A DNA stretch of 64,000 nucleotides, taken from an uncultured Candidatus Saccharibacteria bacterium (lineage in GTDB: Bacteria > Patescibacteriota > Dojkabacteria > SC72). The stretch spans positions 77,611 to 141,610 of the forward strand of contig CAYOME010000001.1 of assembly GCA_964405015.1 (NCBI GenBank), read 5' to 3'. This document shows positions 2 through 37,708 of this stretch, in pieces (within the stretch, counting starts at the first letter, position 1; every line of letters starts with the position of its first letter). The translations under genes were made by a program, and so were the position numbers. The notes under the pieces were generated by a model. It worked only from the letters and a program-made list of their open reading frames with translations. It ran no database searches and was not told where the DNA came from.

Positions 2-3000
2 GTTGAGGGAACAACAGAGGTTGATGAAACTTGTAATGTTTCAATTGGGAGTGGTATGTATTGCTATGATGATATTCAAGAAGCTATTAACAATGCGAAT
101 GATGGAAACACAATAAGTGTACTAGCTGGTACTTATGAGGTTACTAATAGTATTCTTGTTAACAAAGAAGTTTCAATCCTAGCTGAAAACGGTACAAAAG
201 TTATTAATATCGATACTCCTGCAAAATCTGTTTTTAGCATTACAAGAAGTAATGTAAGAATCGAGAATTTTGAAATTACTCATCAGAATTCTTTCCCGCT
301 TGATCATAATGAGATTGCTAATGCACTAATCTCAATCCCTGATAATGCGAACTTAACTAATGTTCAAATTAGAAATAACACTATTTATGGAAATTACACT
401 TCTGGAACATTACACAAAGATATGTATACAAGAGGTATTACAATTGGTAGTTCAGGAATCACAACATTTGATATATCTAACAATACTATTTCATCAGTTA
501 GAAATGGTATTGCTATTAGACAAAACAACACAGGAACAATAGATCAAAATATCATCTTTAATACAAAAGGTGGTGTAATGAACTATACTTCGAGTTTTGC
601 AGATGCCGATAACAGAGTAATAACAAACAACAATTGGACTGATATTCATAATGAGTGGGATATTGTATGGAATTCAGCAACCTACGGATTCCCTGATTAT
701 CAAAATAGTGTTATTACGCTATCTGTAAATAACAATAATGCATACGTGTTAGATCTAAGAAGAGACACGACTACAGAAGTTAAAACTCTATCTGGAAACA
801 GAACACCTGTTTTTGTAACAAAAACAGGTTCCGATATTGTTCATCAATCCACTGGAAATTTCAACGAACCTCTTGCATCAATTCAATTCGCAATTGAGAA
901 AGTTGCACACAACGGTAAAATTTACGTTAAAAATGGGGAATATGAAGAACAAGTTCTTCTTTCAAATAAAAATGTATCTATTATTGGAGAATCAGAAGGT
1001 AATACTAAAATCATAAGTCCCGCATCAATAGTTACAACATTTGAAAACTTAAAACCAGTAATTTCAACTTCCTTCGCAAAATTAGATTTAGAAAACATTA
1101 CAATTGACGGGCTAGGTCGAGGTAATGCCAATTATAGAATGGTAGGTATTGGTTTACAAAATTCTTTCGCCAATTTAAATAATGTCACAATCGTAAATAT
1201 AAAAGAAACACCCGCGAATGGTAATCAACACGGAGTAGGTATGTATGTATATAATTCCGACGGTATAGAGAGAATTGTTTCATTGGAATCTTTAACAGTT
1301 CATGACTATCAAAAGAACGGGTTTGTTTTTAGAGGTCAAGGATTAGTTGCAAACATTACTAATTCTCTAGTAGCTGGTCTCGGAGATATTGATTTTATTG
1401 CCCAAAATGGAATCCAATATGGAGAAGGAGCAACTGGTACTATTCAAAATAATGAAGTTTACGGAAACCTCTATACACCACAATCTTGGTCAGCCACAGG
1501 AATCCTTCTTTATAACGCTGGTAATGATTTAAAGATACAAAACAACAATATTCATAATAATGGTTGGGGAGGAATATATATATCTGGATCTGGAAACAAT
1601 CTTCAGGTATTAGATAATCATATTCATGACAATCTTGGAGATGGATTAATCTTCCAAAGTGGTTCATACGAGAACTCTTTGGTTAAAGGTAACACAATAG
1701 AGAATAATGATAACGGTATTTGGATGGATACTGGGATTTCACCAACGTTACTTGTTACTGAAAATTTCTTTAATAACACAGAATTAAATGCTTCTGATGA
1801 AGGTTCCTACTTCCTTGATAACGGCTTAAAAGGCAATTACTGGAGTGACTATACAGGCTTTGATTTAAATGGTGATGGTATTGGTGAACCACCATATCAA
1901 ATAGACTCAGACTCTTCGGATAGATATCCTCTAACAGAGCAATACTTATCAGCGAAGGTAAACAATGTAAAAGCAAATACTGATTATTACAAAAAGGGAG
2001 ATATACTTTCAGTTGAGGTTGAAGTAACTAATAATGGAAACATACCTTTGGACCCAACAAAAGAGAACTTAGTAATAAATATTACAAGACCAAATGGAAC
2101 ATATATAAGTGGTACATTCAGAGGAAAAGTATTATTAGACTTACAACCTGGTGAAACAAGATTAATTCAGTTCTACTCTACTGAACAGGCAATACCAGAA
2201 GATTGGGTAGATGGTACATATACAATACATACTTCCATATACAGTCAGAGGACTACACCTTTGAATTATCTCGTTGGAGGACAAAACTCATCCGAAACTT
2301 TCATTGTTGATTCAACAAAACCTAGTACTCCTGTAGTATTTGGATACAAAGATCCAAATACTTCTTGTGGCGGATTTACTACGAATAAAGTCACGACAGT
2401 TGATTGGTCAGATTCTTCAGATACAGGATCTTCGATAAAGGGTTACCAATATCAAATTAATTATCCTACAACAAACTCTTCAAGAGGTCTTTGGACAACC
2501 TTCTTTACTAATTCCGAATATAGAGGATCACTTAATGAGGGATCCCACTATATAAGGGTCCGAGCTCAAGACTTAGCTGGCAACTGGAGTGACTGGAGTC
2601 AGGAATGGACTAATCCTTCTAATTTAACATCCTTAGAAAAACAACAAAATTGTTCTATTACCTTAGATACCATCGTACCTCAAGCACCAACAAATCTTTA
2701 CTTCTGGGATGTAGACAATGCAAAAGCAGTACAATGCGGTGGATATAGTAATACAAGGCATATTAATGAACATTGGGATCCTTCTTCTGATGTAAATCTT
2801 AGTCACTACGAATATTCCTCCTTCAATGCTCCAAATGGGGTCGCAGGTCTTGTGAATAAAGTTCTTTTAACAAACTACTTTGATAGCTCATGGTGGAATA
2901 TACCTAAAGAAGGAACATATGGATTCCAGGTTAGGACGGTAGATCTAGCAGGCAATACTTCCCCTTTTGCTCTAACTAATGAATATGGATTTGAAAACAG

Positions 3001-4567
3001 TTGTAAGATAACAATCGATTGGACAGCACCATATGTAGAAATTACAAATCCTTCAAACAATCAATACGTGAAGGGTTCTGTAGACTTCAGAGGAACAGTT
3101 CAGGATACAAACCTCTACAGATACTATTACAGTATTCAAAATACTAAATCTGATACTCTCTATCCATCTGAATCCTTTGAAGACCTCTCCATATATCAAT
3201 GGAATACAACAGAAAAACCAGATGGAATATATGAGCTAAGACTTGAAGCAAGAGATCTAGCAAATAATAAAGATAACAATATCTCAGTAGAGTCAATAAA
3301 AGTTACAGTCGACAACACACTTCCAACAGTATCTCTCATAGATGACTTTACAATATTAGAAGGCTCTACAATACCTACAAAAGAAGTACTAGTAAAAGAC
3401 AACTATGAAATCTCTCAACTCTGTTACTCAATCACAAGTGATATTGGAGATATCTCAGAAAGATGTATTTCCCCATCTACAAGTACAAATGAATGGAATT
3501 TAGATTTCACAAATACAATATTAACACTCCTAAATACCGAATTCGGTATAACTACAATAGTAGCAGATACATCAATATTACCTGAAGGAGAATACTCAAT
3601 ATCTTACTACAGTGAAGATATGGCAGGGAATAAATCTGTTGAAGAAGAAACTGTTGTTACAATATCCAATGTATTACCAAACCTAATATTCTCATCCGAT
3701 AAGACTACTCTTGTAGAAGGAAACAATGTCATATTTAATGGACAATTTACTGATCCAGGACAAGATGACAAAGATTGGTCATACAGACTCTCTTTTGGAG
3801 ATTTAACCGCAGATATATTAGGAACAACATCTACTAATGGAAATATCATTATCAATACCTCACACACATACAACACACCAGGAACATATACAGCACAATT
3901 AGAAATCTGTGAACAAGGAGGGCTATGTACAACTTCAAATATATTGATAACTGTTAATCCGTTGATTGTAGAATCAGGAGAAGTAGCAGGAGTTACTACT
4001 ACAACGAAACCTAAAACAATACTCAAGACTCTTACAACAGTAGTTACAGATATCTTAGGTATCGGTGGAGATGAAGATGAAAAACCAGAAGAAGAATCAG
4101 ACCTTTTGGATGAGAACACATCTGAAGTAAAAGGATCTCAAACATGCGATAACCCATCAAAGATCTCAGGATATATATATCAAGACAAAGATGAGAACGG
4201 TAAAATGGATGAGAAAGAAAAGAGATATTCAGATATATCTGTAAGAATATATACAAAGATAGATGAAAAAGAAGAAACTATTAAAAATATTAAAACAGAT
4301 GACAATGGATATTGGGAAACAACCCTTTGCTCAGGAAGATATTTTGTAGAAGCAGATAAAGGTAATTTACCAAACAATTTCGATATACAAGAAAACGTTT
4401 TAGGTATAGATGTACAAGCAGAAGAAGATACAACTTTAGATTTTACTGTAACAGATGAAAGAAACTTCTTACAAAAATATTGGCTTTGGTTGTTAGTAGC
4501 TCTTACCTTAGTAGGAGGTATTGGAATATTAGTAAGCGATTCAAAGAAGAAAAAATCATACGCATAG
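2..4567 (+). CDS. Giant secreted or surface-anchored protein, 5'-truncated by the window edge. It has parallel beta-helix (NosD/PbH1-like) repeats, a PKD-like domain, an acidic linker, an SdrD-B/Cna-B-like domain and a C-terminal TM anchor.
   Basis: The ORF is open from the window start in the frame that begins at position 2. Repeated 'NNxIxxN...GI' beta-helix motifs are present. A PKD consensus reads 'SHTYNTPGTYTAQLEI'. The sequence carries an acidic D/E-rich linker and ends in a hydrophobic helix followed by a KKKK tail. Confidence 0.7.
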   Translation, partial: VEGTTEVDETCNVSIGSGMYCYDDIQEAINNANDGNTISVLAGTYEVTNSILVNKEVSILAENGTKVINIDTPAKSVFSITRSNVRIENFEITHQNSFPLDHNEIANALISIPDNANLTNVQIRNNTIYGNYTSGTLHKDMYTRGITIGSSGITTFDISNNTISSVRNGIAIRQNNTGTIDQNIIFNTKGGVMNYTSSFADADNRVITNNNWTDIHNEWDIVWNSATYGFPDYQNSVITLSVNNNNAYVLDLRRDTTTEVKTLSGNRTPVFVTKTGSDIVHQSTGNFNEPLASIQFAIEKVAHNGKIYVKNGEYEEQVLLSNKNVSIIGESEGNTKIISPASIVTTFENLKPVISTSFAKLDLENITIDGLGRGNANYRMVGIGLQNSFANLNNVTIVNIKETPANGNQHGVGMYVYNSDGIERIVSLESLTVHDYQKNGFVFRGQGLVANITNSLVAGLGDIDFIAQNGIQYGEGATGTIQNNEVYGNLYTPQSWSATGILLYNAGNDLKIQNNNIHNNGWGGIYISGSGNNLQVLDNHIHDNLGDGLIFQSGSYENSLVKGNTIENNDNGIWMDTGISPTLLVTENFFNNTELNASDEGSYFLDNGLKGNYWSDYTGFDLNGDGIGEPPYQIDSDSSDRYPLTEQYLSAKVNNVKANTDYYKKGDILSVEVEVTNNGNIPLDPTKENLVINITRPNGTYISGTFRGKVLLDLQPGETRLIQFYSTEQAIPEDWVDGTYTIHTSIYSQRTTPLNYLVGGQNSSETFIVDSTKPSTPVVFGYKDPNTSCGGFTTNKVTTVDWSDSSDTGSSIKGYQYQINYPTTNSSRGLWTTFFTNSEYRGSLNEGSHYIRVRAQDLAGNWSDWSQEWTNPSNLTSLEKQQNCSITLDTIVPQAPTNLYFWDVDNAKAVQCGGYSNTRHINEHWDPSSDVNLSHYEYSSFNAPNGVAGLVNKVLLTNYFDSSWWNIPKEGTYGFQVRTVDLAGNTSPFALTNEYGFENSCKITIDWTAPYVEITNPSNNQYVKGSVDFRGTVQDTNLYRYYYSIQNTKSDTLYPSESFEDLSIYQWNTTEKPDGIYELRLEARDLANNKDNNISVESIKVTVDNTLPTVSLIDDFTILEGSTIPTKEVLVKDNYEISQLCYSITSDIGDISERCISPSTSTNEWNLDFTNTILTLLNTEFGITTIVADTSILPEGEYSISYYSEDMAGNKSVEEETVVTISNVLPNLIFSSDKTTLVEGNNVIFNGQFTDPGQDDKDWSYRLSFGDLTADILGTTSTNGNIIINTSHTYNTPGTYTAQLEICEQGGLCTTSNILITVNPLIVESGEVAGVTTTTKPKTILKTLTTVVTDILGIGGDEDEKPEEESDLLDENTSEVKGSQTCDNPSKISGYIYQDKDENGKMDEKEKRYSDISVRIYTKIDEKEETIKNIKTDDNGYWETTLCSGRYFVEADKGNLPNNFDIQENVLGIDVQAEEDTTLDFTVTDERNFLQKYWLWLLVALTLVGGIGILVSDSKKKKSYA

Positions 4568-4657: not shown

Positions 4658-5332
4658 ATGCTTTTTGACACATCATATATACTGTTCATGATTCCCGCAT
4701 TCATATTAGCAATAGCTGCACAGATATGGATAACCTCATCATACAAAAAATATTCTAAACTACACCCAGGAACATCATTTACTGGTAAAGATGCTGCAGA
4801 AACAATAAATAAGGGAGAGAACTTCAATGTAGATATCCAAATATATGGACAATCCTTAGGAGATAACTTTGATCCAAGAAAAAATCTTGTAACTCTCTCT
4901 GCCTCCTCACTAGACTCTTCTGTAGCACAAATCGCTGTAGTAGCTCACGAGTTTGGTCATGTACAACAGAAGTATCAAAATTCCGCTATCTTTAATTTCA
5001 GAAATGGATTAGTACCTGTTGTTAATATTGGATCCCAATTAGGATATATATTGATAATTGTGGGGTTAATATTAAATATATTAGTAATAGCAGAAGTAGG
5101 TGTTCTTCTTTTCTCTTTAACTGCAATATTTGCTTTGATTACATTACCCATAGAGATTGATGCAAGTAAAAGAGCTTTAAAATTAATTACTAAGTACAAC
5201 TTGATAGAGGGAAGTAGAATAGATGGAGCAAAATCAGTATTGTATGCTGCAGCTACAACATATTTTGCATCCCTAGTAACATCAATACTAAATGTCTTGT
5301 ACTATGTATCCTTGATTAACAGAAGGAATTAG
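4658..5332 (+). CDS. Membrane zinc metallopeptidase (HExxH; Zn_peptidase_2-like)
   Basis: 'VVAHEFGHVQQ' HExxH motif flanked by TM helices; length ~224 aa is typical for the family. Confidence 0.6.
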   Translation: MLFDTSYILFMIPAFILAIAAQIWITSSYKKYSKLHPGTSFTGKDAAETINKGENFNVDIQIYGQSLGDNFDPRKNLVTLSASSLDSSVAQIAVVAHEFGHVQQKYQNSAIFNFRNGLVPVVNIGSQLGYILIIVGLILNILVIAEVGVLLFSLTAIFALITLPIEIDASKRALKLITKYNLIEGSRIDGAKSVLYAAATTYFASLVTSILNVLYYVSLINRRN

Positions 5333-5341
5333 ATATAATAA

Positions 5342-5356
5342 TTTGAGGGAACTTAA
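5342..5356 (+). repeat. 15-mer TTTGAGGGAACTTAA, copy 1, immediately upstream of the glmS ribozyme
   Basis: Identical 15-mer recurs at 38253-38267. An AT-rich -10-like hexamer (TATACT) follows directly. Confidence 0.5.
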
Positions 5357-5363
5357 TATACTT

Positions 5364-5498
5364 AAGCGACTGGGTATACGTATGTATACAACGAGGAGAA
5401 GGATATCGAAATAATCAGCGGGTACCTTCAGGTTGTTGTAACAACCTAAAGATGATCTACAAAGGATACAAAAGGATCACTCATTACATTCCCATATA
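5364..5498 (+). ncRNA. glmS-rz: glmS ribozyme (GlcN6P-responsive self-cleaving riboswitch) in the glmS 5' leader
   Basis: Sits directly upstream of the glmS start codon. The core 'ACGAGGAGAAGGAUAUCGAAAUAAUCAGCGGGUACCUUC' matches the conserved glmS ribozyme core (GACGAGGAuGGAGGuuAUCGAAuuuuCGGCGGAUGCCUCC). The P2.1 pair covaries: GAAGG/CCUUC here versus GGAGG/CCUCC in the consensus. A P3 hairpin GGUUGUUguaAACAACC follows, and an AGCG cleavage-site motif lies at 5365/5366. Confidence 0.7.
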
Positions 5499-5523
5499 CA
5501 ACTAAAATATTACTACTACACAT

Positions 5524-7290
5524 ATGTGCGGTATTTTTGGATACATGGGAAATTCAAATGCCCAATCAATAATTCATCATGGATTAAAAAGGTTAGAATA
5601 TAGAGGATATGACTCATGGGGTATAAGTGTAATAGAGGACGGTAAAATACATACAGACAAGAATACAGGAGAGATACCAAAACAATATATACCACAAAAA
5701 TCTTCTAATATTGGAATAGGGCATACAAGATGGGCAACACATGGAGGAGTAACAATTACAAATGCTCATCCGCATTACTCATCTGATATGAGCTTCTCAT
5801 TAGCTCAAAACGGTATAGTAGAGAACTACATTTCACTTAAAACAATGTTAATTAAAAATGGATATACCTTTTCAACTGAAGTAGATACAGAAGTAATTGT
5901 AAAACTAATTGAAGATCATCTCTCTAATTCACAAAATCTAAAACAAGCATTAATCTCCTCCTTCAAACAACTCGAAGGTAGAAACACTGTCATACTGCTT
6001 GATAGTAAAAGTAATCAAATATATGCCATTAGAAATGGAAGCCCTTTAATATTAGGAATTGGGGAGGAAGATATATATATAGCATCTGATCCATTAGCAT
6101 TCAATCAATATTGTAAAAAAATAGTAGAGATAGATAATGGTGAATTAGTAGAAATAGAGTATAAACAATACAAAATATTTGATATATCAAATAATAAATA
6201 TATTAATAGGGTACCCAAATCGATTGATTACCTTGATACAGAAGTTTCTAAAGGAATATATGATGATTACATGATTAAGGAAATAATAGAACAGAAACAT
6301 ACAATATTAACAGCAACCCAATACACACAAAAAGATCTATTAACCTTAATAACACAGATTAAAAAATCAAATACAGTATATACAATAGGAGCAGGTACTG
6401 CTGGATACAGTGCTGATCAAGTAGCCTACTATTTAAGGAAGATATCAAATATTAAGGCAATTTCTGTAAAACCATATGAGATAGAATCATATATAGAATT
6501 GATAGATAAAGATGATACCGTTCTTGCTTTCTCTCAAAGTGGAGAAACTGCAGATACATTAGAAGTAATCGAAACACTTAAACAAAAAGGTACATATATA
6601 TCAAGTGTAATAAATATGCCCAGCTCAACCCTCGAGAGACTCTCTGATAGTGTCTATATGTCCAATGCAGGTAGTGAAATATGCGTAGCCTCTACAAAGG
6701 TATTTACATCTCAAATATCATTTGGGTATCTTTTAGCTATGTGTCTTGCTGATAAATATTCTTTAGCTAAAAAAGAACTAAGTACACTATCATCAAATTT
6801 AGAAATATTCTTTTCTAAACAAATGTTAAAAAAGATAGAGAATATTTCAAAAGAATTGGTAAAACAAGAACACTTCTTTATTCTTGGTAAAGGTCAAAAC
6901 TTCCATATAGCACAGGAAGGAGCATTAAAGATAAAGGAAATATCGTACAAACATTTTGAAGGCTTTGCAGCAGGAGAACTAAAACATGGAGTAATAGCAT
7001 TAATAGAGAAGGGTACTCCAGTCATCTCTATCATTTCAAATGATGAAAACAAAAAGGATTTAATATCTGCTACTCAACAAGTTAAAGCCAGAGGAGCTTT
7101 AACAATAGGGATTGGTGATAAACAGGAAGAGAATTGTTTTGATTTTTTCATAGAAGTGCCAGATACTGATACTCTGAAATCAATATCTAATGTCATACCC
7201 TTACAACTTCTTTCATATTACATATCAAAGAAATTGGGTAATAATATAGATAAGCCAAGGAACTTAGCTAAGTCTGTAACAGTAAAGTAG
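5524..7290 (+). CDS. glmS: Glutamine--fructose-6-phosphate aminotransferase (GlcN6P synthase)
   Basis: Starts 'MCGIxG' with the Cys2 nucleophile. It has an N-terminal class-II glutamine amidotransferase domain followed by two SIS domains, and is ~588 aa. Confidence 0.95.
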   Translation: MCGIFGYMGNSNAQSIIHHGLKRLEYRGYDSWGISVIEDGKIHTDKNTGEIPKQYIPQKSSNIGIGHTRWATHGGVTITNAHPHYSSDMSFSLAQNGIVENYISLKTMLIKNGYTFSTEVDTEVIVKLIEDHLSNSQNLKQALISSFKQLEGRNTVILLDSKSNQIYAIRNGSPLILGIGEEDIYIASDPLAFNQYCKKIVEIDNGELVEIEYKQYKIFDISNNKYINRVPKSIDYLDTEVSKGIYDDYMIKEIIEQKHTILTATQYTQKDLLTLITQIKKSNTVYTIGAGTAGYSADQVAYYLRKISNIKAISVKPYEIESYIELIDKDDTVLAFSQSGETADTLEVIETLKQKGTYISSVINMPSSTLERLSDSVYMSNAGSEICVASTKVFTSQISFGYLLAMCLADKYSLAKKELSTLSSNLEIFFSKQMLKKIENISKELVKQEHFFILGKGQNFHIAQEGALKIKEISYKHFEGFAAGELKHGVIALIEKGTPVISIISNDENKKDLISATQQVKARGALTIGIGDKQEENCFDFFIEVPDTDTLKSISNVIPLQLLSYYISKKLGNNIDKPRNLAKSVTVK

Positions 7291-16016: not shown

Positions 16017-16094
16017 GGTGGCTATAGCTCAATTGGTTAGAGCATCGGTTTGTGGAACCGAGGGTTGTGGGTTCAAGTCCCATTAGCCACCCCA
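16017..16094 (+). tRNA. tRNA-His (anticodon GTG), with encoded G-1 and encoded CCA
   Basis: A cloverleaf was built by hand. The acceptor stem is GTGGCTA/TAGCCAC with G-1:C73. D-arm is GCTC...GAGC and the anticodon stem is TCGGT/ACCGA with loop TTGTGGA. The T-arm is GTGGG-TTCAAGT-CCCAT, and the 3' end is CCA. Confidence 0.9.
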
Positions 16095-17576
16095 TTCTTG
16101 AGTTTTATTCAAATCGTATATCAGGTTAAACGGACTTTTCAGCTCTACATAGAGTTTTTTGTCGTCTACTTCAAGGTTCGAGGAAAGCATTCCTAGGAGT
16201 TGTCGTTTTCTTTCAATTTTCGAACTTTCAAATATTTCCCAAGCTCTTGATGTTATAGAAATTAGGTCTGTAACAACCTTTCCGTAGTTTATACTTGCAT
16301 CAAAGTATCTGTTCTTCTTTTCTTGTAACGACTCTTGTTCATCCTTCAATGACATTGCTTTTTTATCGTATATATCCTGTGTAATACTCTTCTTCAATGC
16401 AAAGTCCAGTAAAGTATCTAACTCTTTATCAAGTTCCTTTAAGCGTTTATCTATCCTTTCAACCTGTTCATCTTCAAATTTTCTTTTTTCTTTACTTATC
16501 CTGTTAATATCCCCAATGATTTCATCCATATATTCTGGAGGGATGACTAGTCCCTCCAAATAACTTTTGAGTTGCTCTAAAAGTATCTTTTCTGATACAT
16601 TCATATTTCCGCACTCTTCTTTTGAAGTGTTACATTGAGCATAGTTATTACCCTTTGTAGTGTATGTAGAAAACATCTTTCCACACTTCTTACATCTTAA
16701 TAGCCCTTTGAATATGTATTCCTTATCTCGATACCTTTCTGCATATCTAGATTTACCATCCTTAACCTCTTGGCATACATCAAACAGTTCTTTTGAAATG
16801 ATAGTTCCAAAATTATGAGGGTAATTAGTCTCTTTTATCCTGTATATTCCATAGTAGATAGGGTCTTTGAGCATTCTTTCAATATGAGATGTTGAAATAG
16901 GTCTCTCAATTCCACCTTTACCTTTTGTGGTTAATCCTTTTTCTCGCATTAGCTTTGCAAGTTTTTTGAAAGAGTATGTGCCTGTTGAATATAGTTCAAA
17001 GGCTTCTTTTACAAGTGGAGCTTTCTCTATGTCTAAAACCCCTTTAGAGCGTTCCTTACCGCTTATATTAACTCTTTGGTTAAGATACCCAACAGGAAGT
17101 TTCCCAATAGGTCTGCCTTGTGCTAGGTTTTCTTCTAGAGCCTTCCTAGTATTGTCGCTAACATACATACAATACATTTTTGCGCCCATAATAGACATAT
17201 CGTATCTTATCCAACTATCTGTTTTGGATTTACTGTCTATTACTAAATTTTCAGAAACGAAGTGTAAAATGACTTTACCATCTCGAATATTCTCATCAAG
17301 ATACACTTGTTCCTTGAAACCTCTTTGGAATCTATCAACTCTATCTGTAATTATTGCTAACGGCTCTTTTCCTGTCTGTTCGATAGCGTCATCTACAATC
17401 TTTAGGAATTTCTTTCTTTCGCCTCTAGTAGAGCTTTCTACTATTTGATAAGGCTCGTGGAGTAACTCAAAGTTCTTATCTTTGATATAATTATCTAACC
17501 TTCGGAGTTGTGCTTCTAGGGATAAACCATCTTCTTGGTCTCTAGAAGACACTCTAGCTATGATTATTGCTTTCAT
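16083..17576 (-). CDS. Large serine recombinase (integrase) 1
   Basis: N-terminal resolvase domain 'AIIIARVSSRDQ' with the catalytic Ser, a recombinase domain, a Cys-rich zinc ribbon (CKKCGK...C..C) and a C-terminal coiled coil. The 3' end overlaps tRNA-His by 12 nt. Confidence 0.9.
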   Translation of the reverse strand: MKAIIIARVSSRDQEDGLSLEAQLRRLDNYIKDKNFELLHEPYQIVESSTRGERKKFLKIVDDAIEQTGKEPLAIITDRVDRFQRGFKEQVYLDENIRDGKVILHFVSENLVIDSKSKTDSWIRYDMSIMGAKMYCMYVSDNTRKALEENLAQGRPIGKLPVGYLNQRVNISGKERSKGVLDIEKAPLVKEAFELYSTGTYSFKKLAKLMREKGLTTKGKGGIERPISTSHIERMLKDPIYYGIYRIKETNYPHNFGTIISKELFDVCQEVKDGKSRYAERYRDKEYIFKGLLRCKKCGKMFSTYTTKGNNYAQCNTSKEECGNMNVSEKILLEQLKSYLEGLVIPPEYMDEIIGDINRISKEKRKFEDEQVERIDKRLKELDKELDTLLDFALKKSITQDIYDKKAMSLKDEQESLQEKKNRYFDASINYGKVVTDLISITSRAWEIFESSKIERKRQLLGMLSSNLEVDDKKLYVELKSPFNLIYDLNKTQEWGG

Positions 17577-24878: not shown

Positions 24879-25844
24879 ATGAGTGAAGAAGTATTGAAAA
24901 AGAAACAAATTATAGAGAAACAACACTATATTCCGCAATTTTACCTAAAACAGTTTGAAGATAAGAATCATCTGATTCAGAGGCTAGATATTAAAGCAAA
25001 CGTAATAATTAAGCCCAAGGGTAAGAAGGGTATTTGCTTTGACAAATTTTTCTATGCTTTAGAAACAGGTGTAGAAGATGAAGTCAGTCAATTGGTAGAA
25101 GAATGGTTAGGTAACCTAGAGAAACACTTATCAAAAAAACTCCCTGAGATAATAGACTCTCTATCCTGTAATGATGCTGTCCCTGATGAAGACAAATATG
25201 ATGTTGCAATGTTAATGGCAATGTTATATTTAAGAGGTCCTGTCTTCCGTAGGAAGCTAAACGAAATGAGATTATCAGGTATAAAACAACTTCTTCAAAT
25301 GTTTTCAAAAATTCCGAAAGATACAGTTGAAGATTATTTTAAGAATCGATATGAAGTTAGCCTAACAAAGGCAGAATTAAACAAACTCCTAAATGGTGAG
25401 GTTGACGACCTAAAGTTTAACAACCTTCTTCATTTGGAAATGATGAACGAGTTACGAGGTTTTTCAAATATGCTTTTTGGGCAAGAATGGCTGGTTTATA
25501 GAAATAAGTCTAGTTATCCATTTGTTACTTCTGATAATCCTTTGAGCCCTGAGAGGTTAGAAAGAAAAAACTTCTATACTGGTGCTTTTATGGATTACAC
25601 TTATCATTTCGCATTATCACCGAAGATACATATTGTTAGTAAAATGCCTAGATTTGTTGAAGGAAAAAAACTTCATAGAAAAACTTTAACAGAAACAGAT
25701 AATGATTTAGTTTTGAGATTGAATCTCTATGTAGCAGATACTTGTAGACAGTTTGTATATGCGTCGAAACGAAGTGCTTTAGAAGATATTTCTGATATTA
25801 TCAGAAGATACAAAGAAATTATTAGACTCAAACAGGAAGAATAA
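24879..25844 (+). CDS. DUF4238-family protein
   Basis: The N-terminal 'QHYIPQFYLKQF' hallmark of DUF4238; ~320 aa. A TATAAT hexamer lies 10 nt upstream of the ATG. Confidence 0.55.
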   Translation: MSEEVLKKKQIIEKQHYIPQFYLKQFEDKNHLIQRLDIKANVIIKPKGKKGICFDKFFYALETGVEDEVSQLVEEWLGNLEKHLSKKLPEIIDSLSCNDAVPDEDKYDVAMLMAMLYLRGPVFRRKLNEMRLSGIKQLLQMFSKIPKDTVEDYFKNRYEVSLTKAELNKLLNGEVDDLKFNNLLHLEMMNELRGFSNMLFGQEWLVYRNKSSYPFVTSDNPLSPERLERKNFYTGAFMDYTYHFALSPKIHIVSKMPRFVEGKKLHRKTLTETDNDLVLRLNLYVADTCRQFVYASKRSALEDISDIIRRYKEIIRLKQEE

Positions 25845-25918: not shown

Positions 25919-27571
25919 TCATAATAACGTCATATAACCGACCCCAGATAATATTTTCATAGATTCTAATGCGTTAAAAGGTTCACGAAGCTCATAGTGA
26001 AGCACCTTTTTATCACCTACAGAAATGTTCACAAACACTAATTTGACCAACTGATCAATTAGATAGGCATTTTCAGTATTTTCTATTGTAGCAACTATGT
26101 TTTTAAAGAAGTTCACAAATAAATCATAATCAGGGAATTCAACATTTGCATGATATTCAGCTTCCTTATTCTGAACTTCTAGACCCTCTCTTTCTACCTC
26201 TAGATCTCTTATTTGGTGAATAATAATCTTCATTTCTTTTGAAAGCTGATTATTAACCACTTCATCTGTGGTTTTCAATATTTTCTCACTATATAGATTC
26301 CTCTTCTTCTCAAGACTAGTAATTCTTATATTCAATTTCCTAATTTCCTCATTTCTTTCTTTTGTTAAAGAATTTACCTCTTCAAAGTAAATCATCTTAG
26401 TTTTATCATAACTAGGCCTTGTAACATTCAAATTCTTACTTATAAAATCAGTTACAAAATCTAGAATTATCTTACCTCTAATTGTATTAGCAATCGGTTT
26501 AATCTTTTTTGTCCTTCTAGTTTCTTTACACTTATTATTCCCACAAGTAACATTCAAATATCTATCAGACTTTCCTGCACTGACACCTGGAATCATAATA
26601 GAACCACAATCACTGCACATTACAAAATCCTTAAAAGGTCTGAAGTTATTATTCATTTTCCAACCTCTTGGATATATTGTTCCTCTCTTTTGAATTGCGA
26701 TGAAATCAGAAGCCGAAACCATAGGTTTAAAATCAGGATCAACAGATAATAAATCAATAACTTGATCACCATAACAATAAAAGCCCGCAGAAAATGGATC
26801 CTTAAAGAAGCCAGAAAGCTTACCCGTATTTAACTCTAATCCTTCATTTTCTAATTCAGCAACAATCTCTTTCTGGGATTTTCCTTCTTTATATTGTTCC
26901 CAAGCATAAGTATAACTATCGTAAGTGTTTTTATCGGGTCTAAAGAAATCAGCTTTATTGGGAAGATATCCTTTTTTACTGGATCCCATGTATTTACCCT
27001 CACTAACTTTCTTCTTATTTCCTCTTTTTGTATCTTCAGAAAGTTTATCCGAGAATTCCTTAGCCATTGCAAAAAGGATACTTAATGTCATTTTACCCGC
27101 CGCATCATTATTGAAAGTGTAAGAGGGGAATTTGAGGTCAATAATATGGTCGTTGTCCAACATGTCCATAATCTCACCTGACTCTTTCATGTTCCTTGCT
27201 AATCGGTCTGGATGCCATGCAAGAATGGAATTATATGAATTCCCTGAGTTCAAGGTATCAAGCATTCTTTGAAATTCAAGTCGCTTACCAGCTGTCATAG
27301 CACTTTTTTCTTCTCTAATAATCTCAACAACTTCTAGATTATTATCCTTAGCAAATTTCTTACAAATATCTATCTGATCATCAATAGATTGAACTTGTCT
27401 CTTTTCATCTTCGGTAGATTTACGAGCATAAATAACATAGAGAGCTTTCTTATCTATTAAATCTCTTTCATCTTTAGTCTTTTTCTTTTTAGAGTTGTAA
27501 ACTTGAGCGTAAGAGCGCAGTAATTCTCTAGATTGAACTTCTGTAAGTTTGTCCGCAGATTCCTTCATCAA
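25919..27571 (-). CDS. Large serine recombinase 2
   Basis: Resolvase domain 'ALYVIYARKSTEDE' with the catalytic Ser, a recombinase domain, a zinc ribbon 'CSDCGS...CGNNKC' and a C-terminal coiled coil. Same orientation as recombinase 1. Confidence 0.85.
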   Translation of the reverse strand: MMKESADKLTEVQSRELLRSYAQVYNSKKKKTKDERDLIDKKALYVIYARKSTEDEKRQVQSIDDQIDICKKFAKDNNLEVVEIIREEKSAMTAGKRLEFQRMLDTLNSGNSYNSILAWHPDRLARNMKESGEIMDMLDNDHIIDLKFPSYTFNNDAAGKMTLSILFAMAKEFSDKLSEDTKRGNKKKVSEGKYMGSSKKGYLPNKADFFRPDKNTYDSYTYAWEQYKEGKSQKEIVAELENEGLELNTGKLSGFFKDPFSAGFYCYGDQVIDLLSVDPDFKPMVSASDFIAIQKRGTIYPRGWKMNNNFRPFKDFVMCSDCGSIMIPGVSAGKSDRYLNVTCGNNKCKETRRTKKIKPIANTIRGKIILDFVTDFISKNLNVTRPSYDKTKMIYFEEVNSLTKERNEEIRKLNIRITSLEKKRNLYSEKILKTTDEVVNNQLSKEMKIIIHQIRDLEVEREGLEVQNKEAEYHANVEFPDYDLFVNFFKNIVATIENTENAYLIDQLVKLVFVNISVGDKKVLHYELREPFNALESMKILSGVGYMTLL

Positions 27572-31325: not shown

Positions 31326-31829
31326 TTACTCCTTAAATAATCCTCTCCTTTGACCTTCTTCTACTCCATATCCAATTCTTACTTCAAGCCTAGAATCTAA
31401 CTGCTTTTTTAATTCTCTGTAGGAATCAATCATCATTTTATATTCAATAAAAGATATTTCTTCTTTTTTATCTTTAGCCTCCTTGAGGACTGTAATTAGT
31501 GCAGTTAACACTTGTATATTTTTCTCAAACAAGTCTAAGTATTGTTTTAAGAGAACATCCTCTGGGAAATCTTTTCGAGATTGTATTTTCTCTAAGCTTT
31601 GTTTACATACCAAAAGATCATTCAAACAATCTTCGGATTTATCCTCATTTTTATTAAGCATTAGTTGCAAAACGGATTTGTCTTTTTGGAAGTATACCCT
31701 ATCTATCTCATTAAAAATTTTGAATACCTGAAAAGAATCTACTATTGCTTGTGTGTAAGCCTCTTTATCGTCTGACATATAAACTTCTGACCAAGTTATA
31801 TATAAATTGTTTGTGAGTATTTGAGACAA
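31326..31829 (-). CDS. Hypothetical helical protein; the start codon is uncertain (TTG at 31829 or ATG at 31778)
   Basis: The 167-aa ORF in the track begins at a TTG; the first ATG would give 150 aa. First gene of a three-gene minus-strand operon. Confidence 0.4.
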   Translation of the reverse strand: MSQILTNNLYITWSEVYMSDDKEAYTQAIVDSFQVFKIFNEIDRVYFQKDKSVLQLMLNKNEDKSEDCLNDLLVCKQSLEKIQSRKDFPEDVLLKQYLDLFEKNIQVLTALITVLKEAKDKKEEISFIEYKMMIDSYRELKKQLDSRLEVRIGYGVEEGQRRGLFKE

Positions 31830-31831
31830 GT

Positions 31832-31950
31832 GGTCTCCCGCTCACAGGTAGGTATCGCTACTCTACCTACTAGGGTTTCCCCTAGTAACCAGGTCAGTGA
31901 TTGCAAGACGGAAGACCGCCTATAACACTGACCTGGATTTAATTTTCTTT
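31832..31950. other. GC-rich structured element of unknown function: three perfect hairpins, a possible pseudoknot and a T-rich tail
   Basis: H1 is GTAGGTA-(9 nt)-TACCTAC at 31848-31870. H2 is TAGGG-TTTC-CCCTA at 31871-31884. H3 is CCAGGTCAGTG-(26 nt)-CACTGACCTGG at 31889-31936. The 5' GGUCUCC (31832-31838) can pair with GGAAGACC (31910-31917) in the H3 loop. H3 is followed by ATTTAATTTTCTTT on the + strand. Local GC is far above the ~30% background. Confidence 0.5.
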
Positions 31951-32023
31951 ACCATGCCTAATAAATAGGTTTAGGTAACTAAGATAATATTATTATGAGT
32001 TTGATAATTTTACAAATGCATAA

Positions 32024-33901
32024 TTAGAATCTATATACAATGTTCTTTTTTGCCTTTCTTTGACCACTGAAATCAAGAAGCATTTTTTCGAAATTCTCAT
32101 TACTTTCTTTTAACTTTTTTTGTTTTTTATCATAATAAAGAGTATCTTCAACAAACCCTTTAATTTCACTTGATACTAACTTAGTTGTGTCTTGAGGACA
32201 AACAGACAACAATTCTAATAGCATAGAAAATACTAAATTACTGACAAAGAAATAATATGGTATTAACTCGTTATTAAAACCTACTTCTAAATGATCCGCT
32301 CCGTTGTGTATAATCTTTGAGCGATATGAATAAGCTTTGCTATATCTTTTATTAAAATTCTGAAAATTTAAGCCTAAAGACTTAATTATTTTAGAATGAT
32401 TTTTAAAGAGCTCTTTATTTTGATAATTTATTGAATGTTCGTATTCTAAAGCATTACGCATATTTGAATTTTTAAATTCAGGAACTTTGTTGATTATCTC
32501 AATTATCTTTTTAAACTCTAGGTCTCCTTCGCCTTTTCTCCTAGAAGGAGTAAAATATGCTCCGAGTTTATCTATAATTCCCCACAGCTCTACGTAGGAG
32601 GATGCTAAAGAATGGGGTTGCTTAGAATCACGGTAATCCCTCAACAAGCCTTTTATGAAAAGCCTGAAGTTCTTACCTTTTCTATGAAGATTTGTTATTG
32701 ATGGATTTAGATATTTTGCATACTCAAAACTATACAACGAATTATAGGATCTTCCTTTATGACTATTATAAATGTAATTCCTCTCTGAAAAAATCGCGTT
32801 TCTATTAAATAACGATAAAATCAAAGATATCTCTTCAAGAAATTCTAACGGTTGTTCAACTTTTTGGGAATTTAATTCTAATGTATGTGTCCAAATCATT
32901 CTCCCCTCCGATGGAGGAAATATTTCCTCTTTAATCTCAGCTGGAATCCCAAGGGAGATATCTACAGATCTCTTAGAGGTCTTAGTCGGTTTATAAAAAA
33001 ATCTCATATCTTGATCATAAGTGAGATTCTTAACAATCCTAAATCGAGATGCGGAGATATAAGGAAAGCCATCGATCTCAAAGTTGTAAAGTTTATATAG
33101 CAATATTTTACTTTTCGAATCAAGACCTCTATCCTTTATATTTATTAGCAATCCAGTTGACAAATCAGACTTTAAAAAAGTATCTTTTATAGAGATAAAT
33201 CCACCTTTGTATGAATACCTTTCTTCCAATAATTTTAACAACCTTTCTGAAAATATATAGAATTCACCTAAAAATATGTTAACAGCTTTGAAAAGTTCAG
33301 GAATAGGTGAATTGTCTCTTGGTATAATACTAATCTTTTTCGTTCCATCTTCTTCTATAGATGTTTGCGCTTTTGTCATGTTTAAATACCCTTTTTGAAA
33401 CCTGTTCAACAAAATTTGTATTTGCTGTTGATTCTCAGTTAACAGAAAAAGCTTCAAGTATTCTGCAATTGTTGTATCTCTTAGCGCTAGCTCGTTAATA
33501 ATCTCTTCAACCTGAATTTCTTCATCTTTGACACCCAAATCAAAGAAATAAGCAATAAAATTTAACATACTATATTTTATTGTGTAAATGTGGTTGATCA
33601 GATCTAACAAAAGGAAACCTTTGACGAAGTCTTTGCTATACATCTCATTAGAAAGGGGTAGTTCGCCATTTATATGTTTAACTGAAAAATTCAAATCTTT
33701 TATTCGATCACGTAAATAAATAATTCTTTGTAGAGAGGCTTGATTACGAACAAACTTGTTAATGTTTAGTTTTTCATGAATGCTAACTCCTGAATTTAAT
33801 GGATCCTCTGTTGCAAACTGCGATACAGTAGATTGTATCTTATCCCATATTTCTAATATTTTTTCCGGATCTTCTGTAACACTTAGTTTATTATGTTCCA
33901 A
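32024..33901 (-). CDS. Hypothetical protein with a C-terminal Rx4H (HEPN-like) motif
   Basis: 625 aa, mostly helical. 'YRSKIIHNGADH' near the C-terminus fits the HEPN Rx4-6H signature. No other recognisable domain. Last gene of the MmeI-like operon. Confidence 0.4.
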   Translation of the reverse strand: MEHNKLSVTEDPEKILEIWDKIQSTVSQFATEDPLNSGVSIHEKLNINKFVRNQASLQRIIYLRDRIKDLNFSVKHINGELPLSNEMYSKDFVKGFLLLDLINHIYTIKYSMLNFIAYFFDLGVKDEEIQVEEIINELALRDTTIAEYLKLFLLTENQQQIQILLNRFQKGYLNMTKAQTSIEEDGTKKISIIPRDNSPIPELFKAVNIFLGEFYIFSERLLKLLEERYSYKGGFISIKDTFLKSDLSTGLLINIKDRGLDSKSKILLYKLYNFEIDGFPYISASRFRIVKNLTYDQDMRFFYKPTKTSKRSVDISLGIPAEIKEEIFPPSEGRMIWTHTLELNSQKVEQPLEFLEEISLILSLFNRNAIFSERNYIYNSHKGRSYNSLYSFEYAKYLNPSITNLHRKGKNFRLFIKGLLRDYRDSKQPHSLASSYVELWGIIDKLGAYFTPSRRKGEGDLEFKKIIEIINKVPEFKNSNMRNALEYEHSINYQNKELFKNHSKIIKSLGLNFQNFNKRYSKAYSYRSKIIHNGADHLEVGFNNELIPYYFFVSNLVFSMLLELLSVCPQDTTKLVSSEIKGFVEDTLYYDKKQKKLKESNENFEKMLLDFSGQRKAKKNIVYRF

Positions 33902-34636: not shown

Positions 34637-37600
34637 TTAGAAAGCCACAGTGTCAATTTCTTTGATTATTTTATCAGTTTCTCTAAGAACTATTGTTATC
34701 ATGGAATAGTGTTCAATATCATCAGGACTTAATTCTCTCCCTTTCCTATCCATCAACCATTTCTGAGCTGGTTGATATCCACCTATATAGAAATTCCAAG
34801 CTACTTCGGATACATTTCCGAAACATTGAGTAGAGTTGACATATATCTTTCCATCCTCAAACTTTGTCCTTTCAACAACATTATTTCCTTCTCCTAGGTA
34901 TGATACCTCGTATGGGTCTATATTCTTGTGTTCGAGTAGATGATATTTGATAAGTTCATTTCCTAATTTAGTCAATTTATCAAATGTCTCCCGGTCTTTA
35001 GGATATGGAATTCTAGGATAATCAATTTTTAAAAATTCTTGAAATTTCTCTCTATATTTTGAACTATTAAGAACAGCGTAAGTATACCTAAGAATCTCTT
35101 CTGGAGTTATTTTGCCAATGTGAGACTCTATCTTTTCAATGATACCTTCGTTTAAGTTAGCTTTCCTCACATCTTCACCCTCGGTAAAAGTATAGAGTGG
35201 AAATATTTGCTCTGCACCTTGCATACCTGGCCGAGACCAATATCTTCTGTCGACAATTCGATTAGAGATAAAACAAGGGGAGCTTCGAGATTCGTCAAAA
35301 CCTCTTTTCACAATAAGACCTACATTATTTCTCAACATATACTTCATAACGTTATATCTGCCATTGCATACAAAGCCATTCTGTTTACCGGTATAGAAGG
35401 TCTTACGAATATCAAAGGGTCTATATAAGATATCAACAAAATTAGTATATTCACCGATATTTTGAAGGATGTCTGCCTTTGCTCTGTTGATTTTCCAATC
35501 TCGTGAATCCTTCGTTTTATATTTTAAGGCAATTTCGTTTTCCGACAGATCGGCAAAATCATCAACAACATTCCGGATTTCTTGATCTGTAAATTGAATT
35601 GCTATCGAATCCCTAACAGTTTCAACACCAGAGACAGATTGAATAAATAAACCATCTATAGGAATATATTCATCGTAAATTGACTTATTCGTAAAATCTT
35701 TTTTAACAAAATAAAAATTTGGTTTAGTATAGTCAAGCTTAGAATACTCAATCTTATCAAATTCATTTGATAATCCCTCAAATTTCTTTTTTCTCAATCC
35801 AAATAGATCTTTATGATAAACACTTGCTAAGTTTGTTTTATCATTTCCAACTTTAACAAAAATGTTAATAGAAACACCTTGTTGGATATCAAAAACATTC
35901 TCATCCCTTGAACCATCTGGTGCAACTTCCTTCTTTTTTGAGTTTCCATGCAAGTCTAGTATATAAATATTATCAAATGTCTCTAAAAGGTGCTTTCGCA
36001 TTTGCCTATGGGTGATACCATCCAAAAATGAATTATTTGTAATCATTGCCACAATTCCACTACCATTCTTCTCAACTAATGATTCTGCAAACCTTATAAA
36101 CTTTATATAATCATCATCTAGATTTATTTTTTTCTCATTTAAATCTTGTTTGTATACTTTAATTAAATTCTGAATCCAATCTCCTTTATTTTGTGAACTA
36201 ACACTATATGGAGGGTTTCCTAATATAACCATTATGGGTTTGTCTTTTTTAATCTCAGAAGCTTCTTTAGACTCTTGAGATATACTATCAGCTAAACCAA
36301 AGCCTTCGAACATATCACCAATTGTGTTTCCTTCTTCCAGAGAATTAGTTAGGTAGATTCCTAATCTTCTGTTGTTAAAGTATTTGAAACCCATTTCTTT
36401 TAACAACATACTCATCTTCAGATGAGCAATGGTATATGGAGCAATCATTATTTCAAATCCAAATAACCTCGGAAGAACTTCATGTAATACATAGCTTCCC
36501 CAATTTCCAGCTTGTTTTTGTCTTCTCTCGTGTATTATCTTGATAACTTCCGTTAAAAAAGTTCCTGTTCCTGTAGCAGGGTCTAATACTTGAACTACAT
36601 GTCCTTTTTCATTCTTGGAGCTGTTCGCAAGTCCTCCTGTGAGCTTAAAATCATGTTCTAGTATATGGTCTACACTTTTTACAATGAATTGAACAACTGG
36701 AAGTGGGGTATAGTAAGCTCCAAATTCTTTTCTCTTCTTACTATCATACTCTTGTAGAAAATCCTCATAGAAGTGTATTACAGGGTCTTTAGATCCTTTC
36801 TCCGTGCCGTAATAATTACTGATGAGTTTAGAGATATCTGAATGAGAAAATACTCTACAAAGCTCATCAACGATACTATCCAATCTGTCATCAAAATCAG
36901 CTCCTGCTATATGGTCGAAGAAATGTCTTAGTAGTGGGTTTGAAGCTGGAACTAAATCCCTAGCTTCTGACCTAGTAAAAGTATCAGGAGATGTATCGTG
37001 GAATCTTGCAACAAACAAGCCGTAGACTAGAGTTTGTGCATACATGTCTGCGAAATCATCGGTTGACATATCATGTATGAGTTGTCTTTTCATGGTCTCG
37101 TAGACTTTATAGATACTTCGCTTCTCTTTTTCAGGACTATTAAGCATCTCTCTTGCATTCTCTCTAATACGATATGCTTTTCCACCCATTATCTTAGCCA
37201 GATGAGAACCAGATTTAATTGCTTCTTTATGAGATTCCGTAAATTGGATTAATGTTTTTCTTAATAGCTCAAAGTTTTCTGGATTGTATGATAGGGTTCT
37301 TTCTTTTTTATCGTATGAAGCAATAGAAATAGGCTCAACGTATTTAATTCCGTTCCTGTAGAATCTAAATTCTAAATAATCTGTTAATATGAGATTGTCA
37401 TATCCATAATATCGCGTAAGTTGTTCAGATTTCTCAATCTTATCAAGTGATACTCCAATATCTTTTACTTCTACATAAAGTAGGGGAACACTTCCTTTTG
37501 ATAAAACAAAGTCTGGCTTATTACCACCTACAGCCTTTCCATCGTGATCAATGTTTGTAACTTTTATTTCGCTAAATATTTCTTTTAGAAAGTTTTCGAA

Positions 37601-37708
37601 TGGTGTCCGGTATCCATATTCCGATGTTTGTGTTTGTGAATACTTTTCAGATACTTCGTTTAAGTAGCGATTCAATATCTCGTAGGTTGTTTTTAAAGTT
37701 GTATCCAT
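34637..37708 (-). CDS. MmeI-family Type IIL restriction-modification enzyme (fused PD-ExK endonuclease, gamma-class N6-adenine methyltransferase and target-recognition domain)
   Basis: The N-terminal 'PDFVLSKGSVPLLYVEVKDIGVSLDK' parallels the MmeI nuclease motif 'VDLFWPGILLIEMKSRGKDLDK'. 'GAYYTPLPVV' matches MmeI 'GAHYTSEANI'. Motif IV 'ILGNPPYSV' matches MmeI 'ILGNPPFVG'. 1023 aa. Confidence 0.85.
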   Translation of the reverse strand: MDTTLKTTYEILNRYLNEVSEKYSQTQTSEYGYRTPFENFLKEIFSEIKVTNIDHDGKAVGGNKPDFVLSKGSVPLLYVEVKDIGVSLDKIEKSEQLTRYYGYDNLILTDYLEFRFYRNGIKYVEPISIASYDKKERTLSYNPENFELLRKTLIQFTESHKEAIKSGSHLAKIMGGKAYRIRENAREMLNSPEKEKRSIYKVYETMKRQLIHDMSTDDFADMYAQTLVYGLFVARFHDTSPDTFTRSEARDLVPASNPLLRHFFDHIAGADFDDRLDSIVDELCRVFSHSDISKLISNYYGTEKGSKDPVIHFYEDFLQEYDSKKRKEFGAYYTPLPVVQFIVKSVDHILEHDFKLTGGLANSSKNEKGHVVQVLDPATGTGTFLTEVIKIIHERRQKQAGNWGSYVLHEVLPRLFGFEIMIAPYTIAHLKMSMLLKEMGFKYFNNRRLGIYLTNSLEEGNTIGDMFEGFGLADSISQESKEASEIKKDKPIMVILGNPPYSVSSQNKGDWIQNLIKVYKQDLNEKKINLDDDYIKFIRFAESLVEKNGSGIVAMITNNSFLDGITHRQMRKHLLETFDNIYILDLHGNSKKKEVAPDGSRDENVFDIQQGVSINIFVKVGNDKTNLASVYHKDLFGLRKKKFEGLSNEFDKIEYSKLDYTKPNFYFVKKDFTNKSIYDEYIPIDGLFIQSVSGVETVRDSIAIQFTDQEIRNVVDDFADLSENEIALKYKTKDSRDWKINRAKADILQNIGEYTNFVDILYRPFDIRKTFYTGKQNGFVCNGRYNVMKYMLRNNVGLIVKRGFDESRSSPCFISNRIVDRRYWSRPGMQGAEQIFPLYTFTEGEDVRKANLNEGIIEKIESHIGKITPEEILRYTYAVLNSSKYREKFQEFLKIDYPRIPYPKDRETFDKLTKLGNELIKYHLLEHKNIDPYEVSYLGEGNNVVERTKFEDGKIYVNSTQCFGNVSEVAWNFYIGGYQPAQKWLMDRKGRELSPDDIEHYSMITIVLRETDKIIKEIDTVAF

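Follow-up and report, generated by a model that had tools for sequence, protein, structure and literature searches.

A shortened glmS ribozyme in the glmS leader of a Dojkabacteria-type bacterium of the candidate phyla radiation

Introduction

In a 64-kb stretch of bacterial DNA (the window, which is the whole of the DNA analyzed here, with positions counted from its first nucleotide), the gene for glutamine--fructose-6-phosphate transaminase (glmS) is preceded by a leader that an earlier note, made by eye, had read as a glmS ribozyme. This locus raises the questions of whether the leader is indeed such a ribozyme, which parts of the known fold it has kept, and in what kind of bacterium it is found. 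With a probability of roughly 90%, positions 5347-5493 of the window are the 5′ untranslated region (UTR) of glmS, folding as a glmS ribozyme, a self-cleaving riboswitch that depends on glucosamine-6-phosphate (GlcN6P). The element is a genuine glmS ribozyme in a lineage-specific shortened form, and its host belongs to the candidate phyla radiation (CPR).

Results and Discussion

Identification of the ribozyme

A scan of the entire window against Rfam 15, at the gathering thresholds, finds three matches, one of which is RF00234, the glmS ribozyme family. This match is located at 5354-5490 on the forward strand, with a score of 60.2 bits (the gathering score is 37) and an E-value of 2.2e-11, calculated for 64 kb, both strands and 4227 families. 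The alignment takes in model positions 1-167 of 167, and therefore the full model. It is the same element that the earlier note had placed at 5364-5498, and the cmsearch that was named there as a check is thus positive.

The scissile bond is located between A-1 (5365) and G1 (5366), where UUAAGCGAC of the window is aligned to the consensus aAaAGCGCC. The same bond had been proposed in the earlier note. The immediate context of the cleavage site is AAGCGAC in the window, as compared to AAGCGCC in the consensus, and the A/GCG motif around the bond is invariant in all 19 members of the clade described below.

The glmS gene is located at 5524-7290 on the same strand as the ribozyme, and encodes a protein of 588 amino acids with the N-terminus MCGIFGY. 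The product matches NF001484 with 580 bits (cut-off 381) and TIGR01135 with 556 bits (cut-off 418), each over the full length. The distance from the cleavage site to the ATG of glmS, at 5524, is 158 nucleotides, and the 3′ end of the ribozyme is about 30 nucleotides upstream of this ATG. The ribozyme is in the 5′ UTR of glmS, and the distance between the two given previously was correct.

An open reading frame (ORF) of 23 amino acids at 5343-5414 overlaps the ribozyme. It is considered to be spurious, as its TTG start is not conserved in the relatives. The minimum-free-energy fold of 5354-5530 has a z-score of -1.2, which is uninformative, as expected because the RNA is pseudoknotted.

Overall fold of the element

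Based on the model match and on the covariation, the core is predicted to form a double pseudoknot of P2, P2.1 and P2.2, flanked by P1, the P3/P3.1 pseudoknot and the P4 hairpin. All of the strands described here are on the forward strand. The 5′ strand of P2.2, CGACUG (5367-5372, with A5369 proposed to be unpaired), begins immediately after G1. Its partner, CAGCG (5416-5420), was located with the RF00234 alignment and the pair counts in the clade, and has A5417 where the consensus has a G. P1 is a hairpin of 6 base pairs (bp) at 5374-5389, with two GUAUAC strands around a GUAU loop, and is defined by the clade pair counts. It is followed by the core strand ACGAGG (5391-5396), which is invariant in all clade members. 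The active-site guanine, G42 of Bacillus subtilis and the equivalent of G40 of Thermoanaerobacter tengcongensis (PMC11602151), maps to G5396, as assigned by position from the RF00234 consensus and the same study.

P2 is formed by the strands GAAGG (5398-5402) and CCUUC (5425-5429, from the clade pair counts), and P2.1 by CGA (5392-5394) and UCG (5406-5408). In B. subtilis, the GGAGG/CCUCC helix that contains the G48-C72 pair is named P2, while P2.1 consists of C38-G55, G39-C54 and A40 (PMC11602151). The present assignment follows from these names, mapped through the Rfam consensus. The GAAGG/CCUUC helix had been described as P2.1 in the earlier note and should be renamed P2. The compensatory change reported for this helix is real, with an A-U pair in second position where the consensus has G-C.

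The P3 hairpin, also recognized previously, is found at 5431-5446 (GGUUG, loop UUGUAA, CAACC) and is supported by covariation in the clade. Bases UGUAA of its loop (5437-5441) constitute the 5′ strand of the P3.1 pseudoknot. The 3′ strand of P3.1, UUACA at 5484-5488 in the window, has complementarity to the P3 loop throughout the clade. P4 is shortened. Its strands UGAUC (5453-5457) and GAUCA (5475-5479) close an A-rich loop of 17 nucleotides, UACAAAGGAUACAAAAG, as indicated by the RF00234 alignment and by covariation.

Conservation and covariation among relatives

Matches to RF00234 are present just upstream of glmS in all six Dojkabacteria-type loci from contigs that represent one genome per species, with scores of 49-67 bits. 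Eleven more loci (10 distinct ones), reached through more distant GlmS homologues, all have such a match as well, with scores of 48-68 bits. The ribozyme is at the same place in 16 of 16 related glmS loci. A pattern scan of metagenomes gave 120 matches, most of them by chance in G+C-rich genes and about 40 of them real ribozymes, and contributes four additional clade sequences. A covariance model was built from 19 distinct clade sequences, which were then realigned, and base pairs were counted, including those of the pseudoknots.

Standard pairs occupy 89.4% of the cells in this alignment of 19 sequences, as compared to 75.3% in shuffles and 35-42% when the partners are slid. The covariation score is 0.393, versus 0.161 in shuffles, and none of 500 shuffles reaches the observed value. 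P1 is paired in 97% of its cells, with changes on both sides in five of its six pairs, and P2 in 100%, with such changes in four of five pairs (for example, AGGAG/CUCCU and GAAAG/CUUUC in relatives). For P3 (98% of cells paired) and P4 (94%), changes on both sides are observed in all five pairs. P2.1 is paired in 98% of its cells and is nearly invariant.

The P3.1 pseudoknot is paired in only 61% of cells when read in fixed columns. This low figure is due to shifts of register among the subgroups. When each sequence is read separately, 4-6 bp are found in all 19, with at least eight complementary variants, including UGUAA/UUACA, UGUAU/AUACA, AUGCA/UGCAU, AUGUAU/AUACAU, AUUG/CAAU, ACUG/CAGU and GCUG/CAGU. 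No clade member has a change at A-1, G1, C2, G3, the ACGAGG strand, C65, G66 or G67. Because the fold is conserved and its helices covary, the RNA is maintained and folded, and is not a relic.

Loss of P4.1 and the L4 tetraloop

The clade lacks P4.1 and the GNRA tetraloop (L4). The model positions of P4.1 are deleted in the RF00234 alignment of the window and its 18 relatives, and the P4 loop consists of the two A-rich strands of IL4, joined by 2-4 nucleotides. This loop has 14-17 nucleotides in all 19 clade members, as compared to 27-44 nucleotides in ribozymes that possess P4.1. The ACAAA...ACAAA strands of IL4 are kept in the P4 loop of nearly all clade members.

In B. subtilis, the IL4 adenosines are stacked in the minor groove of P2.1 and a G-C pair of P1 is the docking site of the L4 tetraloop, with both contacts being sensitive to mutation (PMC11602151). 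The L4-P1 docking is gone in the clade since P4.1 and the tetraloop are gone, and consistent with this loss the P1 pair that corresponds to the dock is A-U in 13 of the 19 sequences and C-G in the other six. On the other hand, the A-rich IL4 strands, which buttress P2.1 in B. subtilis, persist in the form of a terminal loop. The accessory domain is dispensable for catalysis and matters at low Mg2+ concentration (PMC1635283), and the trimmed periphery is therefore compatible with function.

A more distant relative, L159 (GlmS 54% identical to that of the window), retains P4.1, with a GUAA loop. Because P4.1 is kept there, it was apparently lost within this CPR group. The ribozyme of L159 (744-955, 58.2 bits) also carries an insertion of about 53 nucleotides between the equivalents of A56 and U61, in the core between P2.1 and P2.2.

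The P2.2 pseudoknot

C62 and C65 are paired residues of P2.2 in B. subtilis (PMC10810187). The consensus GCGCCuG/CGgCG then reads as the pairs C2-G66, G3-C65, C4-G64, C5-G63 and G7-C62. The corresponding strands of the window, GCGACUGG and CAGCG, have one nucleotide more between G3 and P1, and an A in place of G63. The most economical P2.2, a helix for which the earlier note gave no confident reconstruction, would comprise C5367-G5420, G5368-C5419, C5370-G5418, U5371-A5417 and G5372-C5416, with A5369 left unpaired. In the clade, these pairs occur, in the same order, as C-G in 19 of 19 sequences, G-C in 19 of 19, C-G in 15 of 19, U-A in 19 of 19 and G-C in 19 of 19, so that P2.2 is 96% paired overall. 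The subgroup with GCGUAUGG would use a U4-G64 pair and leave A5 unpaired.

Many full-length ribozymes from gut and other metagenomes (among the loci L030-L149) also carry A63, typically together with GCGCUGG or GCGCUAG as the 5′ strand, with a U-A pair replacing C5-G63. GCGACUGG of the window is GCGCUGG plus one purine. A63 was considered as a lineage-specific trait, and this idea was dropped as A63 is common in full-length ribozymes. Other A63 ribozymes among them have GCGCA(A/U/G)G as the 5′ strand, in which position 63 has no obvious Watson-Crick partner. From these comparisons, the position-63 pair of P2.2 seems to be tolerant to change.

Of two scans of viral contigs, one found no canonical G63 ribozymes, and the other, for the clade type, gave two matches that were both by chance, in coding sequence. 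The comparison of G63/C5 with A63/U5 therefore rests on the Rfam consensus.

Promoter, leader and a candidate closing helix

A promoter-like site is located upstream of the ribozyme, on the forward strand, and consists of TTGATT (5312-5317), a spacer of 16 nucleotides and TATAAT (5334-5339), with 10 of 12 matches in a consensus scan. Promoters of the relatives, TTAACA-16/17-TGTATAAT or TTGACC-17-TGTAATAT, are at the same distance from the ribozyme. Transcription is predicted to start around A5346/G5347, which would give a leader of about 20 nucleotides ahead of the cleavage site. A likely transcription start just upstream of the ribozyme had been suggested in the earlier note. The promoter-like site at 5312-5339 agrees with this suggestion, and the start position itself is a prediction.

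The first nucleotides of the transcript, GGGAA (5347-5351, where the mRNA is predicted to begin), are complementary to UUCCC (5489-5493), which is located directly after the 3′ strand of P3.1. Both are on the forward strand. The two segments probably pair with each other, in a candidate helix (to be referred to as P0) that would close the entire fold. Complementary variants are observed at the two places in relatives, including GGGGA/UCCCC, UGGGAA/UUCCCA, CUUAGGGAA/UUCCCUAAG, UAGGG/CCCUA and AGGG/CCCU. The leader of L159 is 37 nucleotides long, yet GUAGGG/CCCUAC complementarity is present there as well. Moreover, RNAalifold predicts P0 de novo from a MAFFT alignment made blind to structure. 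Taken as a candidate that joins the predicted 5′ end to the tail after P3.1, P0 has suggestive support.

Two other explanations for GGGAA were rejected. A Shine-Dalgarno (SD) site is not expected 170 nucleotides from the ATG, in an organism that is largely SD-less, and a general promoter feature is inconsistent with the presence of GGG after only two of the 62 TATAAT sites in the window.

Proposed mechanism

By analogy with the family, accumulating GlcN6P, the product of the GlmS pathway, would bind beside G1, and the bond between A5365 and G5366 would be cleaved with GlcN6P as the cofactor. The downstream glmS mRNA would keep a 5′-OH end and be inactivated, resulting in negative feedback on the synthesis of cell-wall precursors. 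The GlcN6P cofactor, the 5′-OH product and the feedback are all established for the family (PMC8495972, PMC10810187, PMC5473149). In B. subtilis, it is RNase J1 that inactivates the cleaved mRNA, by degrading it (PMC10810187).

Several observations weigh against the identification of the leader as a glmS ribozyme of this kind, or against parts of it. Positions that are conserved in Rfam are changed in the clade, namely C4/C5, the G before ACGAGG, G63 and U69/G70. L4 is wholly absent, although in mutagenesis of the B. subtilis ribozyme the L4-P1 contact is intolerant to substitution (PMC11602151). The P2.2 pairs are without variation inside the clade and thus give no covariation signal, so that their register is inferred and not proven. 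It draws solely on the between-lineage comparison with GCGCUGG-type ribozymes. The core features that define RF00234 are found in the element, with P2.2 as a predicted helix whose pairs do not vary, while the P4.1/L4 periphery is missing. For P0, 78% of cells are paired, versus 72% in shuffles (1/500), and a control with the partner slid by -1 is 66% paired with an equal covariation score. Finally, the RNase J family has no match among the ORFs of at least 450 amino acids in the window, which is only part of the genome.

Alternative explanations

The alternative that survives best, and which we consider improbable though worth bearing in mind, is that cleavage responds to GlcN6P and that its output is unlike that in Bacillus. 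Cleavage would act mainly by removing the 20-nucleotide leader and opening the P0 clamp, rather than by exposing a 5′-OH end to RNase J1. The 5′ end would then be protected differently, or the mRNA, which has no SD site, would be translated in another way. The candidate P0 pairs the predicted 5′ terminus with the tail of the ribozyme, an SD-like motif is found before only 3 of the 33 long ORFs in the window and is missing at glmS, and no RNase J candidate is encoded in the window. However, the evidence for P0 is suggestive and the transcription start is itself inferred, and RNase J may be encoded elsewhere in the genome, of which the window is a fraction.

It is considerably less likely that the element is a working glmS-type ribozyme with an altered response to the cofactor (another ligand, another affinity, or constitutive cleavage). 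This explanation is raised by the differences of the clade near the cofactor pocket, with the extra purine in the P2.2 strand being two nucleotides from G1, an A at position 63, and positions 68-70 variable within the clade. [quoted passage not shown] Against it, glmS invariably accompanies the element, at a constant distance, and A-1, G1, C2, G3, ACGAGG, C65, G66 and G67 do not vary. In addition, A63 is widespread in otherwise ordinary full-length ribozymes from many environments.

A decaying relic that has lost cleavage, with the absence of P4.1 and L4 and the substitutions at several consensus positions being signs of degeneration, is highly improbable, as the same trimmed architecture is shared by 19 distinct sequences, with GlmS proteins of only 53-75% identity to that of the window, and as there are compensatory changes in P1, P2, P3, P3.1 and P4, invariant catalytic nucleotides and retained A-runs of IL4.

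Comparison with known glmS ribozymes

The glmS ribozyme of the window shares with the RF00234 ribozymes of B. subtilis, B. cereus/anthracis and T. tengcongensis the location in the 5′ UTR of glmS, the A/GCG cleavage site and the ACGAGG strand with the active-site guanine. The double pseudoknot (P2, P2.1 and the predicted P2.2), P1, the pseudoknot of P3 and P3.1, and P4 with its A-rich IL4 strands are also common to them. There are clear differences, however, in the periphery. The window element has neither P4.1, nor the L4 GNRA tetraloop, nor the L4-P1 docking, and its P1 has only 6 bp. It carries in addition the candidate leader-tail helix, and its host is a CPR bacterium rather than a member of the Bacillota. 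The clade further deviates from the RF00234 consensus in having a nucleotide added between G3 and P1, a U-A pair where the equivalent of 5/63 would be C-G, and A or U, not G, before ACGAGG.

Minimal core constructs (P1-P2.2), which lack the P3/P4 accessory domain, show that catalysis in vitro does not need the whole periphery, and that the accessory domain chiefly permits activity at physiological Mg2+ (PMC1635283; PMC11602151). In comparison, the window element is natural and keeps P3, P3.1, P4 and the IL4 adenosines, with only the distal P4.1/L4 module being lost.

The A63 ribozymes from metagenomes (for example, L030, L047 and L057) are like that of the window in having UCAGCGG instead of UCGGCGG and often GAAGG/CCUUC as P2. 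They are different in having a long P4.1 hairpin, with a P4 loop of 27-44 nucleotides, and a longer, G+C-rich P1.

A literature search that joined glmS with CPR or Patescibacteria found nothing. Among the literature that mentions glmS and P4.1, no natural form without P4.1 stood out, and an earlier description is possible, as the main phylogenetic survey was outside the search.

Host lineage

The host is assigned to the CPR, as a Dojkabacteria/WS6-like member, and not to a classical Gram-positive phylum. GlmS itself, the order of the genes around it and the subtype of the ribozyme agree in this. In the earlier note the ribozyme was taken as a sign of a Gram-positive lineage, which these three lines of evidence do not support. 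Among the contigs with one genome per species, the nearest GlmS proteins are 71-72% identical and belong to metagenome-assembled genomes named Candidatus Dojkabacteria or candidate division WS6. In a large protein collection, relatives of GlmS form a continuous series from 75% to 53% identity, and every named entry is Dojkabacteria/WS6. The gene order in the window, Zn_peptidase_2, glmS, a hypothetical protein, DUF2207 and LemA, recurs in the closer relatives. The window is AT-rich, with a G+C content of about 32%.

Some of the GlmS entries in the database (P0038, P0043, P0083 and P0117) have 604-649 residues, where about 590 are usual. The glmS start that was called in L154 is upstream of the MCG start, within the ribozyme/leader region. 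The glmS gene is thus sometimes extended into the ribozyme by gene callers.

TATAAT-like boxes are located 6-10 nucleotides before the ATG of several ORFs in the window, among them the ORFs with starts at 24879, 27879 and 47034. The sequence features of the ORF starts suggest widespread SD-independent initiation in this organism, possibly with leaderless mRNAs.

One of the relatives, HGW-Dojkabacteria-1, has a c-di-GMP-II-GAG riboswitch (L001 73-159) about 2.9 kb upstream of glmS, scoring 46.2 bits (gathering score 40). No counterpart of this riboswitch is found in the window.

Other features of the window

A LOOT RNA (RF03000) is located at 31851-31977 on the reverse strand, with a score of 57.9 bits (gathering score 46.4) over the full model. 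It is flanked by two ORFs without Pfam matches, 31326-31829 and 32024-33901, both on the reverse strand. A literature search on the LOOT family yielded nothing usable.

A tRNA-His gene (16018-16094, forward strand) abuts the gene for a large serine recombinase (16083-17576, reverse strand). Beyond the recombinase are found, in this order, a ResIII helicase with an N6_N4 DNA methylase, a DUF4238 protein, a second serine recombinase (25919-27571) and the LOOT RNA, which is followed by a Type ISP restriction-modification enzyme (34637-37708). From its gene content, the region 16018-38250 has the appearance of a mobile or defence island that was integrated at a tRNA gene. A search for a repeat of the tRNA 3′ end, with a 21-mer and up to three mismatches, found none, and the region shows no clear shift in G+C content.

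Two very large ORFs, both on the forward strand, probably encode surface proteins. The first (56-4567, 1503 amino acids) has NosD-like parallel β-helix repeats and an OmpL47-type domain, and the second (48225-54896, 2223 amino acids) has Laminin_G_3, fn3 and CarboxypepD_reg domains.

Implications

The element is of a textbook class, with a textbook mechanism and genomic context. Less routine are its occurrence in a CPR bacterium, the loss of the L4-P1 clamp in nature and the possible leader-tail helix. With this identification, the 5′ UTR of glmS is securely annotated, and a likely promoter and feedback control over cell-wall precursor synthesis are recognized in a poorly known CPR bacterium. 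The presence of a glmS ribozyme by itself does not imply a Gram-positive organism. For the family, the clade is a natural experiment, in which a lineage does without the L4-P1 contact and yet retains the IL4 adenosines.

A leader-tail helix, if real, would stabilize the glmS fold from the periphery in a way that is new. Cleavage could then also add to the switch by releasing the leader, although this is speculation. It is possible, though we hold it only tentatively and think the odds are against it, that the Dojkabacteria-type element represents a distinct subclass of glmS ribozymes, in which the P4.1/L4-P1 clamp has been lost and its role taken by the helix between the 5′ end and the tail. 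Should this be the case, self-cleavage would do double duty, both making the 5′-OH end and freeing the 20-nucleotide leader that had paired the 5′ terminus, and ribozyme folding, 5′-end protection and feedback control would be tied together in a nearly SD-less organism.

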